Source: an uncultured Bacillales bacterium (GTDB lineage: Bacteria > Bacillota_I > Bacilli_A > RF39 > UBA660). From it: a stretch of 64,000 bases of DNA. The stretch spans positions 5,968 through 69,967 of the forward strand of contig CAMOGG010000001.1 of NCBI GenBank assembly GCA_946614095.1, given 5' to 3'. The first letter of the stretch is position 1; every line of letters begins with the position of its first letter. The notes below the pieces were generated by a model. It saw nothing but the letters and a program-made list of their open reading frames with translations, was not told the origin of the DNA and made no database searches. Below, piece by piece: positions 1,887-63,805 of this stretch. Position numbers and translations under genes: made by a program.

Positions 1887-2273
1887 TTACCAACCTAACA
1901 CATCCAAATAATGTGTAAGTGGTTTTCCATCAATTTGTTCGTTTTGTCTACTTTCCCAATCTGCATTAACTGTATCAATAAAGTCTTTTTCTCCCCATTG
2001 TTTATAGAAGGATTCACATGTTTCTCTTCCATCATTGAACACATTATCACTCTTTTTACCAACTCCTGTAGTATAAATATCAGCTGCCTCCATTACAGTA
2101 CACTTTCTTAATGCATCCATGTAGTTACTTTTAGACTTATTATTGTTTTTTTCTGTTTGTTCTGTAGTTGTTTTACTAGCATCATTATTAGTTGTTTCAG
2201 TATCACAACCTGTTATTAAAAATACTGATAATACTACTATAGCTAATAAACATACCTTCTTCATCATTATCAT
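1887..2273 (-). CDS. Lipoprotein (signal peptide plus LITGC lipobox), function unknown
   Basis: N-terminus MKKVCLLAIVVLSVFLITGC. No recognisable catalytic motif. Confidence 0.55.
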   Translation of the reverse strand: MIMMKKVCLLAIVVLSVFLITGCDTETTNNDASKTTTEQTEKNNNKSKSNYMDALRKCTVMEAADIYTTGVGKKSDNVFNDGRETCESFYKQWGEKDFIDTVNADWESRQNEQIDGKPLTHYLDVLGW

Positions 2274-2301
2274 CTCCTTATATTTATTATACTATATTAT
2301 T

Positions 2302-3084
2302 TTAAATTAGTTTTAACAATTCTTCTATTAACTTATCAAATTCTTGTTTTGAATCTTCTAATTTCAAATAATTACATATTGAACCAACAACATACTGCAT
2401 ACACAAATACATTTTCAAAATTTCATTTTTAAAATTTCCATGATCTATGTTTTGATTTATTAAAATATCTATGCCATCTTCAATTACTCTATTTCCTACA
2501 ACACCAATGGAATTATGAACATACTCACTTAACAAACTATAATGAATATATGCTTCCTTTATCCCCAAATCGCTAATTGTTTCAATCAATTTTGAAATTT
2601 TTATAGGTCTACCTCTTTCATCTTTCTTTTGTTCTTTTTCCATTTTTCTTTTGTATTTGTATAATTTTTCTTTAGAAATATAGTCATACATTTCATTTTT
2701 ATCAATAAAATTAAATAATGAAATCTTTCTTTTTATACTTTCTTGTGTAATAACTTCAATACTATTATTATTTATAGCATATAGACATTTAATAACTTTA
2801 TCATACATTGACCTCAATATAACTTGTGAATCATCATATAATCCTCTTTCTAATAAAATTATATAGGATTGTGAACTCATGTGAATCTGTGAAAAAGTAG
2901 TTCTAACATACACATCCACATCCGTTGGTTTGGTTTTCTCATAATTTTCTTCAATAATATAAAACAATTTATTCATTTTTTCTATGATCTTATATAAATC
3001 ATCATATTCTTTTCGCATTCTTGTTACTTCAAGTTTCAAATCATCATCTAAAAATCCATTAAGCAGTCTCTTCTTTTTATACAT
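2302..3084 (-). CDS. Hypothetical cytoplasmic protein (260 aa), no recognised domain
   Basis: Intact ORF with coding-like composition. It forms a two-gene block with the lipoprotein gene, flanked by the CTTATCTAA repeats. Confidence 0.45.
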   Translation of the reverse strand: MYKKKRLLNGFLDDDLKLEVTRMRKEYDDLYKIIEKMNKLFYIIEENYEKTKPTDVDVYVRTTFSQIHMSSQSYIILLERGLYDDSQVILRSMYDKVIKCLYAINNNSIEVITQESIKRKISLFNFIDKNEMYDYISKEKLYKYKRKMEKEQKKDERGRPIKISKLIETISDLGIKEAYIHYSLLSEYVHNSIGVVGNRVIEDGIDILINQNIDHGNFKNEILKMYLCMQYVVGSICNYLKLEDSKQEFDKLIEELLKLI

Positions 3085-6525: not shown

Positions 6526-6744
6526 TTATATAGTAGTTTGTTCTTTTAATAATCTTACATTGATAGCTTGATAGCCTTTACTGGTTTCAATTAATTTGAA
6601 CTCTACTAGTTGTCCTTCAGCTAACGTTTTATAGCCATCTAATTCGATTGCTGAATAGTGTACAAAAATATCTTCGTTTTCTTTGAATCCGATAAAGCCA
6701 TAGCCTTTATCATTACTAAACCATTTCACGCGTCCGGTCATCAT
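6526..6744 (-). CDS. cspA: Cold-shock protein, CspA family
   Basis: GRVKWFSNDKGYGFI RNP motifs. About 70 aa. Confidence 0.9.
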   Translation of the reverse strand: MMTGRVKWFSNDKGYGFIGFKENEDIFVHYSAIELDGYKTLAEGQLVEFKLIETSKGYQAINVRLLKEQTTI

Positions 6745-6851
6745 TCTACTTCACACCTCTCCTTCTACCATCGTATCTTTATGACGGTATTTTCATTTTA
6801 ACAAATAAGCTTTTTTGAATTTCTTTTTTCCTGAAAGTGCAATTTTTTATA

Positions 6852-6885
6852 CTTTTTTGACAACTTTTTCTACTTTTTTCGACAA
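6852..6885 (+). promoter_or_regulatory. Two direct repeats (CTTTTTTGACAA / CTTTTTTCGACAA) spaced 21 bp start-to-start, upstream of agrB; candidate LytTR (AgrA-like) binding site
   Basis: Repeats at 6852-6863 and 6873-6885. A 21-bp spacing of imperfect direct repeats is the known architecture of LytTR-family sites. TATAAT-like boxes lie downstream at 6913-6919 and 6948-6953. Confidence 0.35.
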
Positions 6886-6973
6886 AATGTTACAAATTAT
6901 ATTTCTTTTTTACTAATTATAGATTTTTTTATTTTTAGACATTCTTGTTTTTATAATATCTTTAGGTGATAGA

Positions 6974-7561
6974 ATGAATCAATTATTTATCAACAAAACA
7001 ATGAATTTTATCCAGAGTAATTCACAACATTCTAAAGAAGAACTTGATAGGATTGAATATGGACTTGAGGGAGTATATTTAACCTTATCAAAAACATTTA
7101 TTATATTAATCGTAGGAATTGTTTTTCATTATCTTAATGTTGTATTACTTACTTTGTTATTTTTTAATATTTTGCGATTCTTTGCTTTCGGATTGCATGC
7201 TAAAAAAAGCCTTCATTGTTTAATCATGTCTATCTTACATTTTAATATTTTACCTTATATTTTTATGCAGTTAAATATTACAAATACATTTGTAGTTTTG
7301 ATATCTCTATTTTCGTTTTTATCATTTTTGTTATTTGCACCTAGTGATACTGTTAAAAGACCTTTAACTAATAAAAAGAAAAGAACTATTAGAAAAATAT
7401 TATCCTTGATTTCAATAATTGTTTTAATGATTATTATGCATTATTTTCCATCATTAAAAGTTCCAATATTATGTGCTTTTATTATTGAAAGCTTAATGAT
7501 TAATCCAATTAGCTATCTCTTGTTAGGATTACCATATCAAAATTATAAAAATAAGGCTTAA
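6974..7561 (+). CDS. agrB: AgrB-family autoinducing-peptide processing protease/exporter
   Basis: Polytopic membrane protein with FGLHAKKSLHCLIMS, matching the AgrB catalytic His…Cys motif (GAHAPSSFWCYVES in S. aureus) at the same 7-residue spacing. Confidence 0.8.
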   Translation: MNQLFINKTMNFIQSNSQHSKEELDRIEYGLEGVYLTLSKTFIILIVGIVFHYLNVVLLTLLFFNILRFFAFGLHAKKSLHCLIMSILHFNILPYIFMQLNITNTFVVLISLFSFLSFLLFAPSDTVKRPLTNKKKRTIRKILSLISIIVLMIIMHYFPSLKVPILCAFIIESLMINPISYLLLGLPYQNYKNKA

Positions 7562-7605
7562 AATATTTATATATTTTAGCAGATAGAATAAGAAGGAGGG
7601 ATAAG

Positions 7606-7731
7606 ATGAAAAAGACATTAGCTCGTTTGTTAGCTGCTGTTGCTGTTTTAGCTACTGGTGCTGCTAGCATGGGATGTATTTGGCTTTTGGTTGATGAGCC
7701 AAATGCTAATAATCTTAAAAACTTTGATTAA
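7606..7731 (+). CDS. agrD: AgrD-like autoinducing-peptide precursor, 41 aa (below the ORF-track cutoff)
   Basis: ATG at 7606 with AGGAGGG 6 nt upstream. Product MKKTLARLLAAVAVLATGAASMGCIWLLVDEPNANNLKNFD has an amphipathic leader, a single Cys in a hydrophobic core, then DEP plus a charged tail as in AgrD. It lies directly downstream of agrB. Confidence 0.7.
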   Translation: MKKTLARLLAAVAVLATGAASMGCIWLLVDEPNANNLKNFD

Positions 7732-7767
7732 TAAAAATACTTCTATTTATTAGAAGTATTTTTTCTT
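7732..7767. terminator. Bidirectional hairpin terminator shared by agrD and the convergent kinase gene
   Basis: aatacttcta-tttat-tagaagtatt with an A-run upstream and a T-run downstream. Confidence 0.55.
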
Positions 7768-9098
7768 ATTGAAATAGTTTCCACATAATAATTATCAATT
7801 ATTTCTTGCTTTTGTTCCAGCCAATTATTAGCTTTTAATATTCTACTTGCATAATATAGGCCATTTCCATGTCCGCTGCCTTTTGAGGATATCCCTTTTT
7901 CAAAGTGATTATCAATTAAACTAGACTTTTTAAATGTGTTTGAAATTACTATATTTACTTTATCTTTTAATTCATATATTTCAAATAATAAAGTCTTTTT
8001 TCTACTTTCTTTTGCAGCCTCTATTGCATTATCATAGTATATTCCTATTATTTTTGAGATAGTATTTATTTTTTCTTTAGATAGCTTGGAAAGAATTCCT
8101 TTTGGTTTAATGCTTATATCTACTGTTACTTTTAATTTATTCTTTTCAGCAATAATTGTTTTATAGTAAAGTAATCCTTTTAAACCTCCTTTTGGTAGAT
8201 CTTTTAAATTATTTACTACTTCATTTTTTATATTTAAGTTTTGGTTAATAATCTCTTCTATTTTATTTTTTACCTCTTTTTCTGATGACATAGCATATAA
8301 TACTGCAAGTTGATTCTTATATTCATGTCTTGTGAATTGTTCTCTTTCAATCCATTCCTCAAATGTTTGAACATTTTGTAGTAATATATCATACTGACTA
8401 GATAGTTTATTATATGTATCTCTGTTATTTGTAAAAATGATTCCAATGATTATCAATGAAACGATAATAACAATATCACTAATAAACCTTATATTAAATT
8501 TATAATTCAAAAAAAGATTATACAGAACTGCACTAGCTCCAATTATTACTAAGATAATAAATGTTGCGTTTAATTTTAAATCCTTTGACGACAATATTTT
8601 ATAACATTTTTTAAATAAAGTTCTTATAGGCTTAATAAAAATTAGTATTTTAGCTATTACTATTACTAATATATTGCTTATTAAGTAGATAAACACATTA
8701 TTTTGAATATCATTTAGTGTTGTAAAATTAATCTGAATAATTAATGATATTATATCTGAAACCAATAATAATATAGTGAGTAATCCTGTTTTTATAAATG
8801 ATTCTTCAATACTATCATTAAATACTATTTTATATGTTATAGTATTGATTATAAAATTTAATAAAGAAGAGAAAGCATTATAATTAATATAATGAATAGT
8901 TACTATTAGCAAACTATTTATTATAAAAATAATAATTGTTTTTATTGTTATTTTTGTGTTATATATTGAATAATTTCTAATTATTAAAAATCCTAAAAGA
9001 GCTAGCATAAATGCACATATAAAATTAACGAATACCTCTAACATAATTAATGATCTCCTTCTTTTTATTTCTTGATACTGCATATAAACTTGTTCCAT
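7743..9098 (-). CDS. agrC: AgrC-like (HPK10 family) membrane sensor histidine kinase
   Basis: About 230-aa polytopic N-terminus, H-box FTRHEYKNQLAVL, and C-terminal GHKL ATPase motif GHGNGL. It is paired with the LytTR regulator. Confidence 0.6.
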   Translation of the reverse strand: MEQVYMQYQEIKRRRSLIMLEVFVNFICAFMLALLGFLIIRNYSIYNTKITIKTIIIFIINSLLIVTIHYINYNAFSSLLNFIINTITYKIVFNDSIEESFIKTGLLTILLLVSDIISLIIQINFTTLNDIQNNVFIYLISNILVIVIAKILIFIKPIRTLFKKCYKILSSKDLKLNATFIILVIIGASAVLYNLFLNYKFNIRFISDIVIIVSLIIIGIIFTNNRDTYNKLSSQYDILLQNVQTFEEWIEREQFTRHEYKNQLAVLYAMSSEKEVKNKIEEIINQNLNIKNEVVNNLKDLPKGGLKGLLYYKTIIAEKNKLKVTVDISIKPKGILSKLSKEKINTISKIIGIYYDNAIEAAKESRKKTLLFEIYELKDKVNIVISNTFKKSSLIDNHFEKGISSKGSGHGNGLYYASRILKANNWLEQKQEIIDNYYVETISIRKNTSNK

Positions 9099-9759
9099 TT
9101 TTAAAATATAATATGTTGCTTTTTGTGTTGTATGACTCCACTTGTTCTAAATTAATAATGTAACTTCTATTACATTTTACAAACCTTTTATCCAATAATA
9201 ATTCTACTTGATTTAAGTTTCCTTGAATATAATAGTCTTTTTCCATTGTTTTTATAATACATCTTTTATTATCTTGTTCTTTTTCAATGTAAATAATCTT
9301 TGAAAATTCTATATTATAAACTGTTTTTTTATAGGTATACTTTAATGAATTAGGTCTTTTGTCAAAGTTTTTTAAACTTATTTGGATGGCTTGTGTTAAT
9401 CTTTGATTAAAATTATCAAATTTATTTACAAAGTCTACTAACATTAATCTCTTTCCAAGAGCTTCAAATTTAAATTCTGGATACGCTGTTACAACAATAA
9501 TCATAGATTGCCAGTCATCCAATTCTTCTCTAATATATCTTGCTGCATCTAATCCTGAACCTTCTTTTGTTTTTAAATCTAGTATATATACTTTGAAATT
9601 GTCGTTTTTAGATAGTTTTTTCCAATTATTTGTATAACCACTAAAAACATTGAACTTATATTCAATGTCATAATTCATCATTACTTTTTCTGCTATTTCT
9701 TGATACTTTTTAGCAAATTCTTTTTCATCTTCACAAATAATAAAATCTATCATAATCAT
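9025..9759 (-). CDS. agrA: LytTR-family response regulator (AgrA-like)
   Basis: Receiver N-terminus MIDFIICEDEKE plus a C-terminal LytTR domain. The track ORF begins at an upstream GTG. The likely start is the ATG cluster at 9753-9759, preceded by an extended -10-like TGATAAAAT. The 3' end overlaps the kinase gene 5' end. Confidence 0.6.
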   Translation of the reverse strand: MIMIDFIICEDEKEFAKKYQEIAEKVMMNYDIEYKFNVFSGYTNNWKKLSKNDNFKVYILDLKTKEGSGLDAARYIREELDDWQSMIIVVTAYPEFKFEALGKRLMLVDFVNKFDNFNQRLTQAIQISLKNFDKRPNSLKYTYKKTVYNIEFSKIIYIEKEQDNKRCIIKTMEKDYYIQGNLNQVELLLDKRFVKCNRSYIINLEQVESYNTKSNILYFKNGTSLYAVSRNKKKEIINYVRGIR

Positions 9760-9824
9760 CACGCATCCCATTATGATTTTATCACGCTTTTTGTATAAAT
9801 AAAAGAACACTTTTGTGTTCTTAT

Positions 9825-14171: not shown

Positions 14172-14245
14172 ATTATCTCTCCTTCCGCCATGACAAAATA
14201 TTTGTCATAGTAATTCAATGCCATATTAATATATCAAATATTTCT

Positions 14246-17728: not shown

Positions 17729-18238
17729 TTAAAAATACTTTTTCATGATTTCCTTTACTAAGGATTTATATTCCACTGAAGTCTCTTTTTCATCTATTAA
17801 GCATAAAGGTGGAAATAGAACACACCAAAAGTTATCTCCCTTACCTTCTCCTAATGTTATTACAACCGATTCATATTCTCCTTCTGGATAAATTACACTT
17901 TTATATTCTTTTTCTGGAAAATAATTTTTTCCATAGTTTATGTGGAAAGTTTCATTTCTTTTCTCTTCTTTTATTGTTTTTTCCACAATTTCAGTGAATT
18001 TTGGTAACTCTTGAATAATATAATTTCTTGTGTCATTTATATTCTTTATATTTTTGATAGATGATATTTCATAAGATAAGTTTTTAATAATTCTCTTTTT
18101 TATTTCTTGATCTTTCTTTTTATTACTACTAGCAATTACACGAAATCTTATTGATTCTGCTGGTATTTTTAGCTTTTCTTCTTTATTTATGGATAATATT
18201 AAAATAATTATTGCGATGACAGGTATTATTTTTTTCAT
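17729..18238 (-). CDS. spoIIR: Stage II sporulation protein R
   Basis: IRFRVIASSNKKKDQEIKKRI and DNFWCVLFPPLCL match the SpoIIR signature (NWWCVLFPPLC). It sits in conserved prfA-prmC-spoIIR synteny. Confidence 0.75.
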   Translation of the reverse strand: MKKIIPVIAIIILILSINKEEKLKIPAESIRFRVIASSNKKKDQEIKKRIIKNLSYEISSIKNIKNINDTRNYIIQELPKFTEIVEKTIKEEKRNETFHINYGKNYFPEKEYKSVIYPEGEYESVVITLGEGKGDNFWCVLFPPLCLIDEKETSVEYKSLVKEIMKKYF

Positions 18239-41539: not shown

Positions 41540-42356
41540 TATGCACCTCTATCTGATTATATGGTATTTTGATTCCTGCTTTGTCAAAGGCTATTTTTAT
41601 TTCTTTTCTTAACAATCTCTCTACTTTTGCCTGTTTCATAGGCTTTGTTTCGACTACAACTCTATATATAACTGCCGAATCTGATAAAGAGTTTACTCCC
41701 CATAATTCAATATCTTTCGTAGTTTCCGGTATTGTTCCATTTAATTTTTTAAATAAATCTTCAAATGTTTTTTCTATGATTTCCTCTTTACACTCATAAG
41801 CCACAGCAATATCTACTACTGCTAGAGAATTATTATCACTGTAATTAATAATATTATCCATATAATGATTTGCTATTATCTTTGTAGCTCCTTTATAATT
41901 ACGAATTCTTGTTGTACGTAGTCCTATATATGTAACTTCTCCTTTAAAACCATCTATTTCTATAGTGTCCCCGACTTCATATTCTCCTTCGATAATAATA
42001 GAGAACCCTGCAATCAAATCTTTGGCTAAATCTTGTAATGCTAATCCAATTAATGCTGTTCCTATTCCTAATCCAGCTAATATAGATTTTACATTAACTC
42101 CATGAAGAGAAAGTATAGATAAAATGACTAAAACAATAATAATATATTTAAACAAATTAATAATTAGAGTACGAAAAGTATTTATTCTTTGAATCTGAGT
42201 AGTTTTTAATCCTTTCTTTCTATCTGTAGTTTTGATGATAACTCTTTTGATAATACGAAAAATTCCATATCCAATTATAATGTTTAAAATGGATAATACT
42301 ACTATTTTTATATTAATTGTCTGACCAAATATATGAATCATATTATTTTTCCTCAT
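41529..42356 (-). CDS. MscS-family mechanosensitive channel
   Basis: TM helices plus beta domain (…GDTIEIDGFKGEVTYIGLRTTRIRNYKG…). Confidence 0.7.
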   Translation of the reverse strand: MRKNNMIHIFGQTINIKIVVLSILNIIIGYGIFRIIKRVIIKTTDRKKGLKTTQIQRINTFRTLIINLFKYIIIVLVILSILSLHGVNVKSILAGLGIGTALIGLALQDLAKDLIAGFSIIIEGEYEVGDTIEIDGFKGEVTYIGLRTTRIRNYKGATKIIANHYMDNIINYSDNNSLAVVDIAVAYECKEEIIEKTFEDLFKKLNGTIPETTKDIELWGVNSLSDSAVIYRVVVETKPMKQAKVERLLRKEIKIAFDKAGIKIPYNQIEVHNGK

Positions 42357-43266
42357 CTAAATGCATATATTCTAATAATCGATTTAAATCATTTCCATTT
42401 ACAAAACTAATTTCTATCTTATTTTTCCTGATTAAAACTTTTGTTCCTAATTTTTCACTTAATTCATTTTGTAGATAAGTATATTCATTTACTACTTTTT
42501 CTTTTGGCTTTTGAGGATTTGTTTTAATAATCTGTGGCTCTTGTGTTAATTTTTCTAATTCGCGTACACTGATACCTTCTTCTTTGATTTTATTTACTAA
42601 CTCTTGCTGTTGCTTTTCGTTTTCTAATTTACTTAGTACTCTAGCATGTCCCATAGAAATATTTTTTTCATTTAATTCTTCTTGTATTTTATCTGGTAAG
42701 TTTAGTAAACCTAACATATTTGTAATATGACTTCTACTTTTTCCTAAACGTGCTGCTAGTTGTTCTTGTGTTAATGATAATGTCTCTTGTAACTTTTTAT
42801 ATGCTGTTGCTTCTTCAATAGCACTTAAATCTTCTCTTTGTAGATTTTCTAATAATGCTATTTCCATCATTTGTGTATCATTAAAGTCTCTAATAATCGC
42901 AGGTATCTCCTTTAATCCAGCTAGTTGTGATGCTTTTACTCTCCTTTCTCCAGCTATTATTTCATATCCTTTTATTGATTTTTTAACAATAATTGGTTGA
43001 AAAACGCCATGTTCTTTGATGGAACTTGCTAATTCATTTAAAGCTTCTTCATTAAATACTTTCCTTGGTTGATAGGGATTGCTTCTCAATTCAGCAATTT
43101 TAATCATAGTGATTTCTTCTTTTGGTGTTTCATTGACTATTTTTTCTTCTACAGCACTATAATCTAATACTTCGCTGCTAAATAATTCTTCTAATCCTTT
43201 TCCAAGTGCTCTTCTTTTTGGAATTCCACTTTCGGTTACTTCATTATTTGTTTCCATTTCTTTCAA
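42343..43266 (-). CDS. parB: Chromosome-partitioning protein ParB/Spo0J
   Basis: ParB box GERR, HTH GKSRSHITNMLGLL. Positions homologous to Caulobacter ParB R173/T179/A184/G201 are R/M/N/G. Confidence 0.9.
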   Translation of the reverse strand: MKEMETNNEVTESGIPKRRALGKGLEELFSSEVLDYSAVEEKIVNETPKEEITMIKIAELRSNPYQPRKVFNEEALNELASSIKEHGVFQPIIVKKSIKGYEIIAGERRVKASQLAGLKEIPAIIRDFNDTQMMEIALLENLQREDLSAIEEATAYKKLQETLSLTQEQLAARLGKSRSHITNMLGLLNLPDKIQEELNEKNISMGHARVLSKLENEKQQQELVNKIKEEGISVRELEKLTQEPQIIKTNPQKPKEKVVNEYTYLQNELSEKLGTKVLIRKNKIEISFVNGNDLNRLLEYMHLDEEK

Positions 43267-44133: not shown

Positions 44134-45489
44134 TTATATTTGAGTCTTATCTATTTTGATAATGATTTGATAAGATTTTTCAAAGTCCATTTCATCTGTT
44201 CCTACCGTAATTCCATGGCTTTCTAAATCTTTTACTAGCTCTCTAATTTTACTTGTTGCTTCTTCTATCGTATATTTATCTGAATTACTACCTATTGAAG
44301 AATTTATTTCAAATCTTTTATCTTCTTGGATTGGATTTATTAAGTTATTATCCATTGGGTTTACTGTATCCATAGGATTTACTATACTAGATGGTAATTC
44401 GATAGAAGATAAATCTGATGTTTGAAAATAATCAGAGGACTGATTTATTACGTCATCTACTGGATCTGTTTTTACTATTTTTTCAGCTGGTGTTATGAAA
44501 TCAGTGGATGGTACTGATGAAGTTGGATTTCCTAGATTTAATAAACTATCTAAGGCTGCTCCTCCTGTATCAGTATTAATATCTGATGTATTTTCTTTTA
44601 CACTATTTATATCAATCGAAGTAACAGAACTTGGAATATCTAGATTTTTTTCATCCTCTTCTTCGTCTTCCTCATCTTTTCCTATTTCTCCATAATTTAT
44701 AAATTTACCCATTGGCATGTCCTCTCCATCTGGCGGAGCAATTGTCACTTTTCCATAATTTGAATTATCTTCTGGTAATTCGGCAGTTGGAATTAGTGGA
44801 TTGCTGTTTACAAATGCACTTACAGAAGCTTCTTGTGTCTCCTGAGGTGCTGTAAAAGTTTGATTTTCTTTTGGTTCTTTAGGATATAGTTGTTTGATTT
44901 CATCCTCTAAATTACGTACACTCATCTTTGTTTCTATTACTTTTTTTACCATTTCTTTTTGTTTTTCTGCATCAGGTATATTTAGTAATGATCTTGCGTG
45001 TCTTTCCGATATTTGTTCCTTTAATAATGCTTCTTGAATGGTATCAGGTAAAGATAATAGTCTAATTTTATTAGCCACCGCAGATTGACTTTTACCCATT
45101 GTTTTAGCTAACTCTTCTTGCGTCATTTGATCTAATTCTAAGATTTTTTGATATGTTCTAGCTTCTTCTATTGGATTTAAATTTTTTCTTTGTAAGTTTT
45201 CTAATAAGGCTACTTTAGAGCTTTCTTTATCATCTAAATCTCTAATGATAGCTGGAATTTTTGTTAATCCTGCTAAAGCTGATGCTTTGTATCTTCTTTC
45301 TCCAGCAATTATTTCATATTTTCCATTTACATTTCTAACAATGATGGGTTGAATTACTCCGTGTTCCTTGATAGAGACTGCTAATTCTTTTAATGCTCTT
45401 TCGTCAAATACTTCTCTAGGTTGGAATCTATTAGGAATAATATCATCTAAGTATAATTGTACTACTTCATCTTTATCATCTGGAAACAT
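44134..45489 (-). CDS. noc: Noc-like ParB paralogue with a ~250-aa low-complexity C-terminal extension
   Basis: ParB N-domain (GERR), HTH GKSQSAVANKIRLL…ISERHAR. Specificity positions are Q/K/S/R (Noc type is Q/K/K/R). Located in the Bacillus noc position (rsmG-noc-parA-parB). It lacks the N-terminal amphipathic helix of B. subtilis Noc, and the C-terminus is S/T/N/P/E-rich with NPMDTVNPMD repeats. GAGGGA RBS sits 5 nt upstream. Confidence 0.65.
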   Translation of the reverse strand: MFPDDKDEVVQLYLDDIIPNRFQPREVFDERALKELAVSIKEHGVIQPIIVRNVNGKYEIIAGERRYKASALAGLTKIPAIIRDLDDKESSKVALLENLQRKNLNPIEEARTYQKILELDQMTQEELAKTMGKSQSAVANKIRLLSLPDTIQEALLKEQISERHARSLLNIPDAEKQKEMVKKVIETKMSVRNLEDEIKQLYPKEPKENQTFTAPQETQEASVSAFVNSNPLIPTAELPEDNSNYGKVTIAPPDGEDMPMGKFINYGEIGKDEEDEEEDEKNLDIPSSVTSIDINSVKENTSDINTDTGGAALDSLLNLGNPTSSVPSTDFITPAEKIVKTDPVDDVINQSSDYFQTSDLSSIELPSSIVNPMDTVNPMDNNLINPIQEDKRFEINSSIGSNSDKYTIEEATSKIRELVKDLESHGITVGTDEMDFEKSYQIIIKIDKTQI

Positions 45490-55663: not shown

Positions 55664-56110
55664 TTGAATTATGAGATTAGTAAAGGTACATTAGCTGTTG
55701 TACCAAATGAGTTTGAAAAGAGTATTGTCTATGAAGACGAGGAAAAGTATTTTGTAGATCAGTCTCCATTTCAAATAATGGAAGAAAGTTGTAAATATTT
55801 TGGAAGTACATATGAGGGAAGAAAAATAGGTGCAAAAGAAATCTTAGGAGCAGAATATAAAGTACCAATTGTAGTAGAGGATAGTAATAATTTAATTGTC
55901 TTTCCTACTACTTCACCGTCTTCTAATGGATGTGTTTGGATTTCTTTAAAAAGAGTAAAAAAAATAGAAAAAATTACTTCTAATCAAACAAGAGTAATAT
56001 TTGATAATAACATTGAAATCGTAGTAGATTGTTCTTTTCGTACTTTAGAAAATCAATTGTCTAGAGCATCACGTTTAGATTTAATTCTAAGAAATCATAA
56101 AAATAGTTAA
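55664..56110 (+). CDS. comK: ComK-family competence transcription factor homologue (short, 148 aa)
   Basis: Aligns with B. subtilis ComK blocks: YEISKGTLAVVPNE / YEVNGATIAVLPEE; PFQIMEESCKYFGSTYEGRKIGA / PLQIVDRSCRFFGSSYAGRKAGT; KVPIVVEDSNNLIVFPTTSPSSNGCVWIS / KPPIMVDPSNQIFLFPTLSSTRPQCGWIS. Confidence 0.7.
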   Translation: MNYEISKGTLAVVPNEFEKSIVYEDEEKYFVDQSPFQIMEESCKYFGSTYEGRKIGAKEILGAEYKVPIVVEDSNNLIVFPTTSPSSNGCVWISLKRVKKIEKITSNQTRVIFDNNIEIVVDCSFRTLENQLSRASRLDLILRNHKNS

Positions 56111-63165: not shown

Positions 63166-63269
63166 ATATGAGGTGAAATATATTCTAATTATTATTCACT
63201 TTTTTTTAGTTATTTATTATAAACTATTATTTTATTTACTTTTATTATTTTTTGTATTAAAATAATTTT

Positions 63270-63346
63270 GTGCAATGAAAGTGATTGAAACAGGTCAGGA
63301 TTGGAAAATAGCAGCCTTAAGATCCTCCTTTCATGTGCACTTTTTA
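63270..63346 (+). ncRNA. ffs: Small signal-recognition-particle RNA (4.5S/scRNA-type, ~77 nt) with intrinsic terminator
   Basis: Contains the conserved domain IV motif CAGGUCAGG-auu-GGAA-aau-AGCAGCC (GNRA tetraloop). 5' GUGCAAUGAAAG pairs with 3' CUUUCAUGUGCAC, followed by a T-run. The ffs-tadA-dnaX neighbourhood is conserved in Bacilli. Confidence 0.7.
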
Positions 63347-63358
63347 TTTGGAGGAAAT

Positions 63359-63805
63359 ATGGAAGATAGATTTATGAAATTAGCGTTTGAATGTGCAAAA
63401 AAGGCATATCAACTTAATGAGGTTCCAATTGGTGCAGTTATTGTTAAAAATGGTGAAGTGATAGCAACAGGTTATAATAAAAAAGAATCCAATTGCTCTG
63501 TTTTAGAACATGCTGAATTGATTGCTATAAGAAAGGCTGAAGAAAAACTTCATAATTGGAGATTGGATGATTGTGATATGTATGTAACGCTTGATCCTTG
63601 TCCTATGTGTGCTAGTGCAATTAAGCAATCAAGATTTTCTCATGTTTATTCTGCTTTAAGTAATTCTGATGAAAATAATTCTAACATTATTCAATCTATT
63701 TTTTTAACTGATCATGTCAATCCATGTATAATTTTTAAAAGCAATCTTTTTCCTGATTATTCTCAAAAATTACTTCGCAATTTTTTTAAAAATAAAAGAA
63801 TTTAA
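63359..63805 (+). CDS. tadA: tRNA-specific adenosine deaminase TadA
   Basis: CDA motifs HAELIAI and PCPMCA. The ATG at 63359 has GGAGGA upstream. The track ORF's 5' extension (from 63275) overlaps the SRP RNA and is rejected. Confidence 0.8.
   Translation: MEDRFMKLAFECAKKAYQLNEVPIGAVIVKNGEVIATGYNKKESNCSVLEHAELIAIRKAEEKLHNWRLDDCDMYVTLDPCPMCASAIKQSRFSHVYSALSNSDENNSNIIQSIFLTDHVNPCIIFKSNLFPDYSQKLLRNFFKNKRI

Follow-up and report, generated by a model that had tools for sequence, protein, structure and literature searches.

A probable agr-type autoinducing-peptide system with a predicted six-residue ring in uncultured gut Bacilli

The agr quorum-sensing systems of staphylococci, Listeria and some clostridia are well understood. 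Here, we describe a complete and, it seems, intact agr-type locus in a window of 64,000 nucleotides (nt), the whole stretch of DNA that was analyzed, from a contig of an uncultured Bacillales bacterium; all positions are in window numbering. The locus encodes the membrane peptidase AgrB (6974–7561, plus strand), a 41-residue precursor peptide, AgrD (7606–7731, plus strand), an AgrC-like HPK10 sensor histidine kinase (7743–9044, minus strand) and an AgrA-like LytTR response regulator (9025–9753, minus strand). Most likely, these genes constitute a functional autoinducing-peptide (AIP) quorum-sensing system of uncultured, probably spore-forming gut Bacilli, with a predicted six-residue ring and putative dual promoters. 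A known type of system is thereby recorded for a further lineage, and nothing established about agr is overturned. Three points go beyond routine: the AgrD subfamily in part escapes the standard models, its six-residue core architecture is fixed while the cores themselves diversify almost species by species, and the intergenic spacer hints at a cold-shock protein as the divergent output and at Spo0A as an input. To our knowledge, the lineage (Candidatus Onthousia, Clostridium sp. CAG:451/CAG:710 and similar metagenome-assembled genomes, MAGs) has no cultured representative and no described signaling.

A conserved four-gene locus near the chromosome origin

A preliminary description of this DNA had proposed a complete agr-type locus in which the kinase gene converges on agrBD. 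This picture is supported by matches to domains and to solved structures, by synteny throughout the clade and by the way in which the peptide is conserved. The agrB gene and the 41-residue agrD form one rightward unit, and the LytTR regulator and HPK10 kinase form a convergent leftward unit on the opposite strand, with overlapping genes. Between the two units, a 13-bp hairpin with T-runs on both strands (7733–7763) looks like a bidirectional terminator dividing agrBD from the regulator–kinase unit; the fold of 7722–7775 has a minimum free energy of −14.8 kcal/mol (z = −5.4), equaled by 0 of 200 shuffles. A second terminator hairpin (9803–9822, minus strand), following the upstream glycosyltransferase gene, would insulate the regulator–kinase operon. 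An Rfam scan found no known RNA inside or near the agr locus.

A large protein collection contained 85 AgrB homologues, every one metagenomic. The single AgrB protein as query found no match in the genome collection, and an alignment of its homologues as query against GTDB species representatives recovered 80 loci. All 80 are in MAGs, labeled as uncultured Bacilli, Tenericutes, Erysipelotrichaceae, Candidatus Onthousia (placed by NCBI taxonomy within Bacilli incertae sedis) or Clostridium sp. CAG:451/CAG:710, from human, ruminant, rabbit, mouse and chicken guts. Together with seven metagenome loci, they make 87 related loci, or 88 with the window.

As far as the contigs extend, the order hpf < csp < | > agrB > agrD > < kinase < regulator is the same in the window and in 87/87 relatives, and csp, the gene of a cold-shock-domain protein, adjoins agrB in 88/88 loci, even as AgrB identity to the window copy drops to ~35%. 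The window itself is the chromosome origin region, with rnpA-yidC-jag | dnaA-dnaN-comK-recF-gyrB-gyrA at 50–62 kb, and mnmE, mnmG, rsmG, parA and parB at 42–50 kb. Because of this constant synteny and the origin-region setting, we conclude that the agr locus is ancestral to the lineage and vertically inherited at a fixed site ~45 kb from oriC, and that it is no mobile insertion. The host is very probably an endospore former, since spoIIR lies in the window (17729–18238, minus strand; Pfam Spore_II_R, 4.9e-37). The gene points to endospore formation in this lineage of uncultured gut Bacilli, which is often binned as ‘Tenericutes’.

AgrB and a partly missed AgrD subfamily

The identification of agrB at 6974–7561, with the motif LHAKKSLHC, proved sound. 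The predicted protein matches Pfam PF04647 with 113.6 bits (cutoff 23; E = 8.8e-33) over model positions 2–175 of 185, contains several hydrophobic segments, and carries the motif FGLHAKKSLHC, in which His75 and Cys82 (H75-AKKSLH-C82) lie seven residues apart. Neither residue varies in an alignment of 35 AgrB homologues. The catalytic pair of S. aureus AgrB is His77/Cys84. Domain match, catalytic pair and hydrophobic segments together identify the product as the membrane cysteine peptidase/cyclase for AgrD.

The agrD gene begins 44 nt downstream of agrB on the same strand, preceded by a strong AAGGAGG ribosome-binding site (RBS; 7593–7599) that ends 6 nt before the ATG. Its 41 codons specify MKKTLARLLAAVAVLATGAASMGCIWLLVDEPNANNLKNFD, identical to the peptide quoted in the preliminary description, with a leader (residues 1–23), a predicted core, CIWLLV (Cys24–Val29, 7675–7692), and a follower, DEPNANNLKNFD. 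An RBS-preceded small open reading frame (ORF) follows agrB in 7/7 metagenome loci and 76/80 genome loci, the remaining four contigs stopping short of this position. Among 82 distinct AgrD peptides, Met1, the core Cys and Glu-Pro at +7/+8 are invariant, and KK, A(−4), S(−3) and G(−1) nearly so. Entropy reaches 2.3–2.9 bits at core positions +1, +3, +4 and +5, against 0–0.5 bits at the flanking A, S, G, E and P, and the 82 peptides have 77 different C+5 cores. A conserved leader and follower enclosing a hypervariable core is the pattern of AgrD, and by this pattern the small ORF is identified as AgrD.

The gene had been called unannotated, which is apt in the functional sense: a family profile search found at least 496 database proteins, none with a Pfam domain and with ‘hypothetical protein’ as the only descriptive name, and protein-cluster look-ups gave no name for the window peptide. 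Gene callers, however, do find the ORF. Profile searches, proposed earlier as a check, gave a split result. The AgrD family is represented by the models TIGR04223 and PF05931. AgrB was recovered at the E-value above, and TIGR04223 (‘AgrD family cyclic lactone autoinducer peptide’) matches 16 of 28 family members, with a best E-value of 6.3e-6, but the window peptide itself has no match in Pfam and NCBIfam at E ≤ 1, a point that weighs against its assignment. Standard AgrD models thus miss part of this subfamily.

A second Cys is present at core position +4 (C-x3-C, for example CVWFCAAEP) in 16 of the 82 relatives, from L028, L030, L031, L034–L036, L041, L042, L044, L046, L048, L051, L052, L062, L065 and L083, and at +5 in three. 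It raises the question of which thiol cyclizes, or whether a disulfide is formed; the window AgrD has a single Cys.

Ring size and maturation of the predicted peptide

All 82 AgrD peptides contain C-x5-(D/E, rarely A/N)-E-P. Position +5 is variable (2.72 bits) like +1, +3 and +4, and the conserved block starts at +6, which is D or E in 78/82 peptides; the boundary between core and follower would thus fall after +5. In the AgrD proteins of S. epidermidis, S. aureus group II and Listeria, the AgrB cut lies directly before x-E-P. Taken with the invariance of C-x5-(D/E)EP, this makes a six-residue ring, CIWLLV, the most likely product, by analogy of the cut site.

Six residues before DEP had been regarded as unusual for this gene; they are instead the rule of the clade (82/82), and six-residue rings, although uncommon, are precedented. 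Most known AIPs have five-residue rings, a rule to which the six-residue AIP of C. acetobutylicum is an exception (PMC4916163). A group of clostridial agr systems is predicted to have six-membered rings, and a synthetic R6T0 peptide has been used in C. acetobutylicum (PMC10301443). Rc-AIP1 of Ruminiclostridium cellulolyticum, which controls sporulation, was determined as CWFWSY, without an N-terminal extension, and tail-less clostridial AIPs of this kind rearrange by an S-to-N acyl shift to all-amide rings (PMC8251862). In the family described here, a conserved A-S-x-G stands immediately before the core Cys. Because its small residues at −3 and −1 suit signal peptidase, and because characterized clostridial AIPs lack an N-terminal extension, a tail-less product is favored. 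Our best guess for the mature product, by analogy, is cyclo-CIWLLV, with a calculated [M+H]+ of 728.4164 (629.3480 for CIWLL); the mass routine reproduced the published 873.3389 for CWFWSY.

Two other readings of the small ORF have to be weighed. The product could be a tiny lipoprotein or secreted peptide rather than an AgrB substrate, its MKK, hydrophobic stretch and A-S-x-G-C forming a lipoprotein signal peptide that is removed ahead of a lipid-modified Cys. The leader is consistent with the general lipobox pattern, and lipoprotein model NF038029 weakly matches 6/28 family members (best E-value 0.041). The AgrD model, in contrast, matches 16/28 with far better E-values, the ORF invariably lies directly downstream of agrB, it combines an invariant (D/E)EP follower with hypervariable residues behind the Cys, a mature lipoprotein would have only 18 residues, and the validated AgrD of C. 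perfringens has a similar signal-peptide-like leader; a lipoprotein is very unlikely, with hardly a few chances in a hundred left to it. A better case can be made for a canonical five-residue ring, CIWLL, with Val29 opening the follower and AgrB cutting at Leu28/Val29. In C. perfringens, the ring CLWFT is separated from EEP by the extra residues HQP, so the distance from ring to EP motif is not fixed among AgrD proteins, which speaks against reading six residues from the motif, as does the five-residue ring of most known AIPs. However, variability at +5 equals that at +1, +3 and +4, the D/E block opens at +6, the cuts of S. epidermidis, S. aureus group II and Listeria fall immediately before x-E-P, and six-residue products are documented. 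The shorter ring is thus possible, at roughly one chance in four.

An HPK10-like kinase and a LytTR regulator

The HPK10-type kinase had been placed at 7743–9098, with FTRHEYKNQL as its H-box. Family and H-box hold, and the start is most likely at 9044, giving 433 residues, rather than at the end of the longest ORF: AAGGAGA stands ahead of the ATG at 9044, and orthologous kinase genes are called at 430–434 residues. From this start, the gene overlaps the regulator stop by 20 nt. The best solved relatives are structures of the S. aureus AgrC kinase module, 6e52 (6.3e-8) and 4bxi (6.7e-7), with RHEYKN, which includes the phospho-accepting His, aligned to RHDYVN, DNAIEA to DNAIEA and GSGHGNGL to GEGRGLGL. 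A crude Kyte–Doolittle scan gives about six hydrophobic segments within residues 1–209. The orthologues in loci L004, L006 and L007 carry Pfam PF14501 (HATPase_c_5); the window kinase has no Pfam kinase (histidine-kinase ATPase) match, which counts on the same side as the silence of the AgrD models. Against NCBIfam AgrC it scores 21.7 bits (cutoff 500), and its sequence marks it as HPK10-like, not an AgrC equivalog.

The regulator, described as a LytTR protein at 9025–9759, is acceptable as such, its start lying at 9759 or at the ATG two codons inside it, at 9753, from which homologues are called. It combines a receiver domain with Asp59 and a LytTR DNA-binding domain, the latter matched by Pfam at 2.5e-17 (63.3 bits, cutoff 22.6). 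The Response_reg match (3.9e-5, 24.2 bits) is under its cutoff of 30.2, and the ICEDE, ILD59 and VVT motifs are present. The best solved relative is the AgrA LytTR domain (2e-10), and the score against NCBIfam AgrA is 57 bits (1.7e-15), under the cutoff of 400. Both proteins fall far under the equivalog cutoffs; they belong to the agr kind of HPK10/LytTR proteins without being close orthologues of AgrC and AgrA.

Some 45 nt lie between the hairpin at 9803–9822 and the regulator start (9754–9802, minus strand), and they include TGATAAAAT, an extended −10-like element. This stretch holds no repeat pair. Its shortness and the lack of a pair suggest that the regulator–kinase unit may be constitutive, with a very short leader, and not autoinduced.

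Candidate LytTR boxes in the csp–agrB spacer

The divergent neighbor of agrB, csp (6526–6744, minus strand), has homologues with a CSD Pfam annotation and is a possible direct output of the system. Its putative promoter has an extended −10 (TGTTAAAAT, 6795–6803, minus strand) in a block conserved in alignment A1. On the other side of the spacer, the agrBD −10 hexamer TATAAT (6952–6957, plus strand), with no recognizable −35, is conserved in the same alignment. A LytTR operator was defined as two imperfect direct repeats of 9–11 bp with a 12–13 bp spacer (20–22 bp period), just upstream of an activator-dependent promoter, and such an arrangement is found clade-wide. A direct-repeat offset scan of the region 105–185 nt upstream of agrB in the 87 spacers gave a single sharp peak at 21 nt (mean 8.68 vs ~6; 28 loci over threshold vs 0–6 at other offsets). 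On the minus strand, the csp-facing boxes of the clade read ACAnTTTAAGG-N10-ACAATTnACGG and score at least 10 bits in 57/87 loci. In 47 of these 57, the proximal box is 30 nt (40 loci) or 29 nt (seven loci) from the csp extended −10 (TGnTAnnWT, no −35). The AgrA box consensus is ACAGTTAAG, which we take the clade motif to resemble.

In the window, the proximal left-facing box (6830–6840, minus strand; GCACTTTCAGG) scores 7.0 bits against the clade position weight matrix (PWM), ACAATTTAAGG, and lies 29 nt from the csp −10. The distal left-facing box (6851–6861, minus strand; GTCAAAAAAGT) is degenerate, at −7.8 bits, and is placed by its position, from the 21-bp period; the pair totals −0.7 bits. 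This distal box overlaps the first of two direct repeats, CTTTTTTGACAA (6852–6863) and CTTTTTTCGACAA (6873–6885), with starts 21 nt apart, which the preliminary description had read as LytTR site architecture suggesting autoinduction. The repeats do exist, within tandem 21-bp units (6840–6879, plus strand), a 19-nt repeat enclosing them (6840–6858/6861–6879; 17/19 identical, period 21 nt) whose score is reached in 4/2000 first-order Markov simulations (p ~0.002). As 12-mers, they match at 10/12 positions and are not beyond chance in this T-rich spacer, where other pairs give a best score of 11/12, reached in 187/2000 simulations. The pair as described does not match the LytTR-operator parse. 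Because the 21-bp pair of the clade sits one unit to the left, repeat 1 is probably the distal box of the csp-facing pair; with repeat 2 holding a Spo0A-box core and a candidate for agrB at 6892–6922, autoinduction is unlikely to act through the span 6852–6885 as parsed earlier.

The best candidate site for agrB is a right-facing pair at 6892–6922 (plus strand), ACAAATTATAT and ACTAATTATAG separated by 9 nt, with a 20-bp period, ending 29 nt before TATAAT. The pair is weak (1.7 bits; shuffle mean −12, standard deviation 5.4). Its terminal G6922 is invariant in alignment A1, and 59 loci keep a G at −31. A PWM built from left-facing boxes only finds plus-strand pairs in 12 loci, against 0 in shuffled sequence, with the distal box starting 87–93 nt before the agrB ATG. 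Clear agrB-facing pairs are ACATTTCAAGG-N10-ACATTTTAAGG in L070 and ACAGTTAATAG-N10-TCTTTTAATGG in L022, the latter followed by 30 nt and TAAAAT, and 6892–6922 would be their positional equivalent. An offset scan of the agrB-proximal 110 nt gave a marginal excess at 20–21 bp (6.8 vs ~6.2), so the support for the right-hand pair comes from the PWM (12 loci) and from position.

Several observations weigh against the assignment of both pairs in this genome. Only the proximal left box has a good score, the other three boxes of the window scoring −7.8 to 2.4 bits against the clade PWM and being placed by position. A scan of the window with this PWM gives chance pairs of up to 15 bits within coding DNA, above the pairs of the locus itself. 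Since the window boxes match the PWM poorly, the promoter model here rests on positional homology rather than on sequence. Moreover, with csp as neighbor everywhere, synteny cannot tell boxes serving csp from boxes serving agrB at a distance. The clade that contributes most to the PWM has regulators only ~48% identical to the one in the window, whose preferred box may therefore differ. The box-pair PWM was rejected for calling targets in this genome, as coding-DNA chance matches outscore its own boxes.

The conserved pair at 6830–6861 might, alternatively, be an orientation-independent upstream activating site for agrBD only, csp being an unrelated constitutive neighbor. As csp is adjacent everywhere, its fixed promoter distance could be mere inheritance, and the spacing between the pair and the agrB −10 varies little as well (89–92 nt in 40/42 loci). 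Yet the boxes lie on the csp strand, oriented as the AgrA boxes at S. aureus P2, their 29–30 nt distance to an extended −10 without −35 is the geometry of an activator-dependent promoter, and at least 12 relatives have a separate plus-strand pair at the equivalent distance from the agrB −10. We regard this possibility as the less probable one, though it deserves about a quarter of the weight. Doubtful to a greater degree is the earlier parse, in which the repeats at 6852–6885, units 2 and 3 of the 21-bp tandem, bind the LytTR regulator and drive agrBD autoinduction. The 19-nt repeat is beyond chance, TTTTTTCGACA is invariant in the close relatives L001–L006 (alignment A1), and the distal boxes of the window group on both sides read ACAAA/GTCAAAAA, so that GTCGAAAAAAG could be a third such box. 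Repeat 1, however, is not kept as GACAA, close relatives showing TTTGTAAT, TTGGTAAT or TTTGCA; the conserved 21-bp pair of the 87 loci lies one unit to the left; TGTCGAA, the minus-strand core within repeat 2, shifts its orientation and its distance to the pairs between clades, unlike a direct-repeat half-site; and 67 nt separate the end of the repeats from the agrB −10, against 29–30 nt for the clear pairs of relatives.

Two further observations concern the same spacer. A 32-nt direct repeat (6819–6850/6901–6932; 75% identical, 82 nt apart) has near-identical T-rich flanks, ATTTCTTTTTT ... A(A/T)TTTTTTAT, that surround both proposed proximal boxes, the boxes themselves being different and on opposite strands. 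An expectation-maximization motif search of the csp-proximal spacer halves converged on the csp RBS, not on boxes, and was discarded.

A candidate Spo0A-box core between the two pairs

A perfect core of the Spo0A ‘0A box’ is present at 6878–6884 (minus strand) inside repeat 2, reading TTCGACA on the plus strand and TGTCGAA on the minus strand. TGTCGAA is the 0A box core common to Bacillus and C. difficile (PMC3485338). It occurs in 47/87 spacers, against 1.3 expected, in both orientations and nearly always 70–130 nt from the agrB ATG, and it is the commonest non-low-complexity 7-mer of the spacers, tied with one from the csp RBS. Because its orientation flips between clades, TGTCGAA behaves as the site of an independent factor, not as half of a direct repeat. 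The site is the sole exact TTTTTTCGACA of the window; with one mismatch allowed, there are 6 copies against 3.4 expected, so no TTTTTTCGACA regulon is inferred. Lying between the two pairs, the conserved core may link the agr system to the sporulation regulator. Against this stands the failure to find spo0A in the 64-kb window. CodY and cre boxes were considered for the TTCGACA element and rejected, with 6 mismatches to the CodY consensus.

Proposed mechanism and significance

By homology, AgrB (His75/Cys82) would remove the follower and close a thiolactone between Cys24 and the new C-terminus. A signal peptidase cut before Cys24 would release a tail-less peptide, which an S-to-N acyl shift could convert to an all-amide cyclo-CIWLLV. 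The polytopic kinase would sense this peptide and phosphorylate the regulator at Asp59. The hypervariable core (77 variants in 82) would give each species a private signal. For this genome, we hypothesize that the csp–agrB spacer holds two divergent activator-dependent promoters, comparable to S. aureus P2/P3, each with a LytTR pair 29–30 nt upstream of a −10 without −35: csp, and possibly hpf, would be under the leftward pair (6830–6861), agrBD autoinduction would run through the rightward pair (6892–6922), and the Spo0A-box core between them could bring input from the sporulation regulator.

Taken to the order level, the layout would mean that in this lineage of uncultured, spore-forming gut Bacilli an ancestral agr system goes beyond ordinary autoinduction in two ways: its direct divergent output would be neither a regulatory RNA nor a toxin but a cold-shock-domain RNA chaperone, whose gene may be co-transcribed with that of the ribosome hibernation factor, and it would be wired to Spo0A through a conserved 0A box. 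This reading, which spans 87 or more genomes of human, ruminant, rabbit, mouse and chicken samples, is tentative, with odds of about three to one against it. If true, each species would use its own six-residue cyclic peptide to tie translational shutdown, and entry into dormancy or sporulation, to cell density, and the near one-core-per-species diversity would amount to a set of private channels in the gut. The analysis yields a catalogue of ~80 orthologous precursors of fixed architecture and species-specific cores that can be synthesized and tested, a concrete product mass, and a testable regulatory layout linking quorum sensing, a cold-shock protein, possibly a ribosome hibernation factor, and sporulation.

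Comparison with known agr systems

The closest parallels are Rc-AIP1 of R. cellulolyticum and the AgrBDCA system of C. acetobutylicum (R6T0). Shared with them are an AgrB and a short AgrD with a signal-peptide-like leader, a core that starts with Cys and forms a six-residue ring (here predicted), Trp at +1 or +2 amid aromatic and hydrophobic core residues, a host that forms spores (very probably so here), and transcription of agrBD apart from the two-component genes (PMC8251862, PMC10301443). In contrast to these clostridial systems, the host here belongs to uncultured Bacilli rather than Clostridia, the regulator–kinase unit is convergent with agrBD and has the regulator gene first, no LanM-like gene lies downstream, and the short (D/E)EP-KALKNMD follower lacks a Pro-x-x-Pro motif. 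The peptide of the window locus, for its part, is a predicted product.

With S. aureus agr, the locus shares all four protein families, the seven-residue distance between His and Cys in AgrB, a hypervariable signal core, the RH(D/E)Y.N H-box, the DNAIEA N-box, the receiver Asp59 and the LytTR domain. The proposed two divergent promoters, each with a direct-repeat pair, recall P2/P3 (PMC4227749). Identity is low, however (21.7 bits against a cutoff of 500 for AgrC, 57 against 400 for AgrA), gene order and orientation differ, and the divergent transcript would encode a cold-shock protein, not RNAIII. The S. aureus ring has five residues plus a tail of 2–4, whereas six residues and no tail are predicted here. 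Listeria monocytogenes agr likewise has a Bacilli host and a tail-less AIP (cyclo-CFMFV, R5T0) that starts from Cys and is followed by x-E-P in the precursor, and its promoter is autoregulated (PMC4916163), as proposed here. Its ring has five residues and its AIP is conserved across species, in contrast to the predicted six-residue, near species-specific cores of the gut lineage.

Other features of the window

The site beyond secA differs among relatives. In the window (1887–3084, minus strand), it holds a DUF5677 protein and an unassigned 128-residue ORF, in L001 (1–1183) a phage-type integrase, and in L004 a methyltransferase. Two ParB-type genes (42343–43266 and 44134–45489, both minus strand) lie on either side of parA/soj; the second is unusually long (451 residues), with ParB_N and HTH_ParB within the first ~200 residues and an uncharacterized C-terminal half. 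A ComK-family gene (55664–56110, plus strand; Pfam ComK, 2e-44) occupies the gap between dnaN and recF of an otherwise canonical origin cluster, an unusual position for a competence regulator. An L31-Firmicutes ribosomal-protein leader (14179–14210, minus strand; RF03156) barely exceeds the gathering score of 33.3, at 36.3 bits. Finally, a small signal recognition particle RNA (63260–63356, plus strand; RF00169, 56.3 bits) overlaps the start of ORF 63275–63805, which is therefore probably not a gene.

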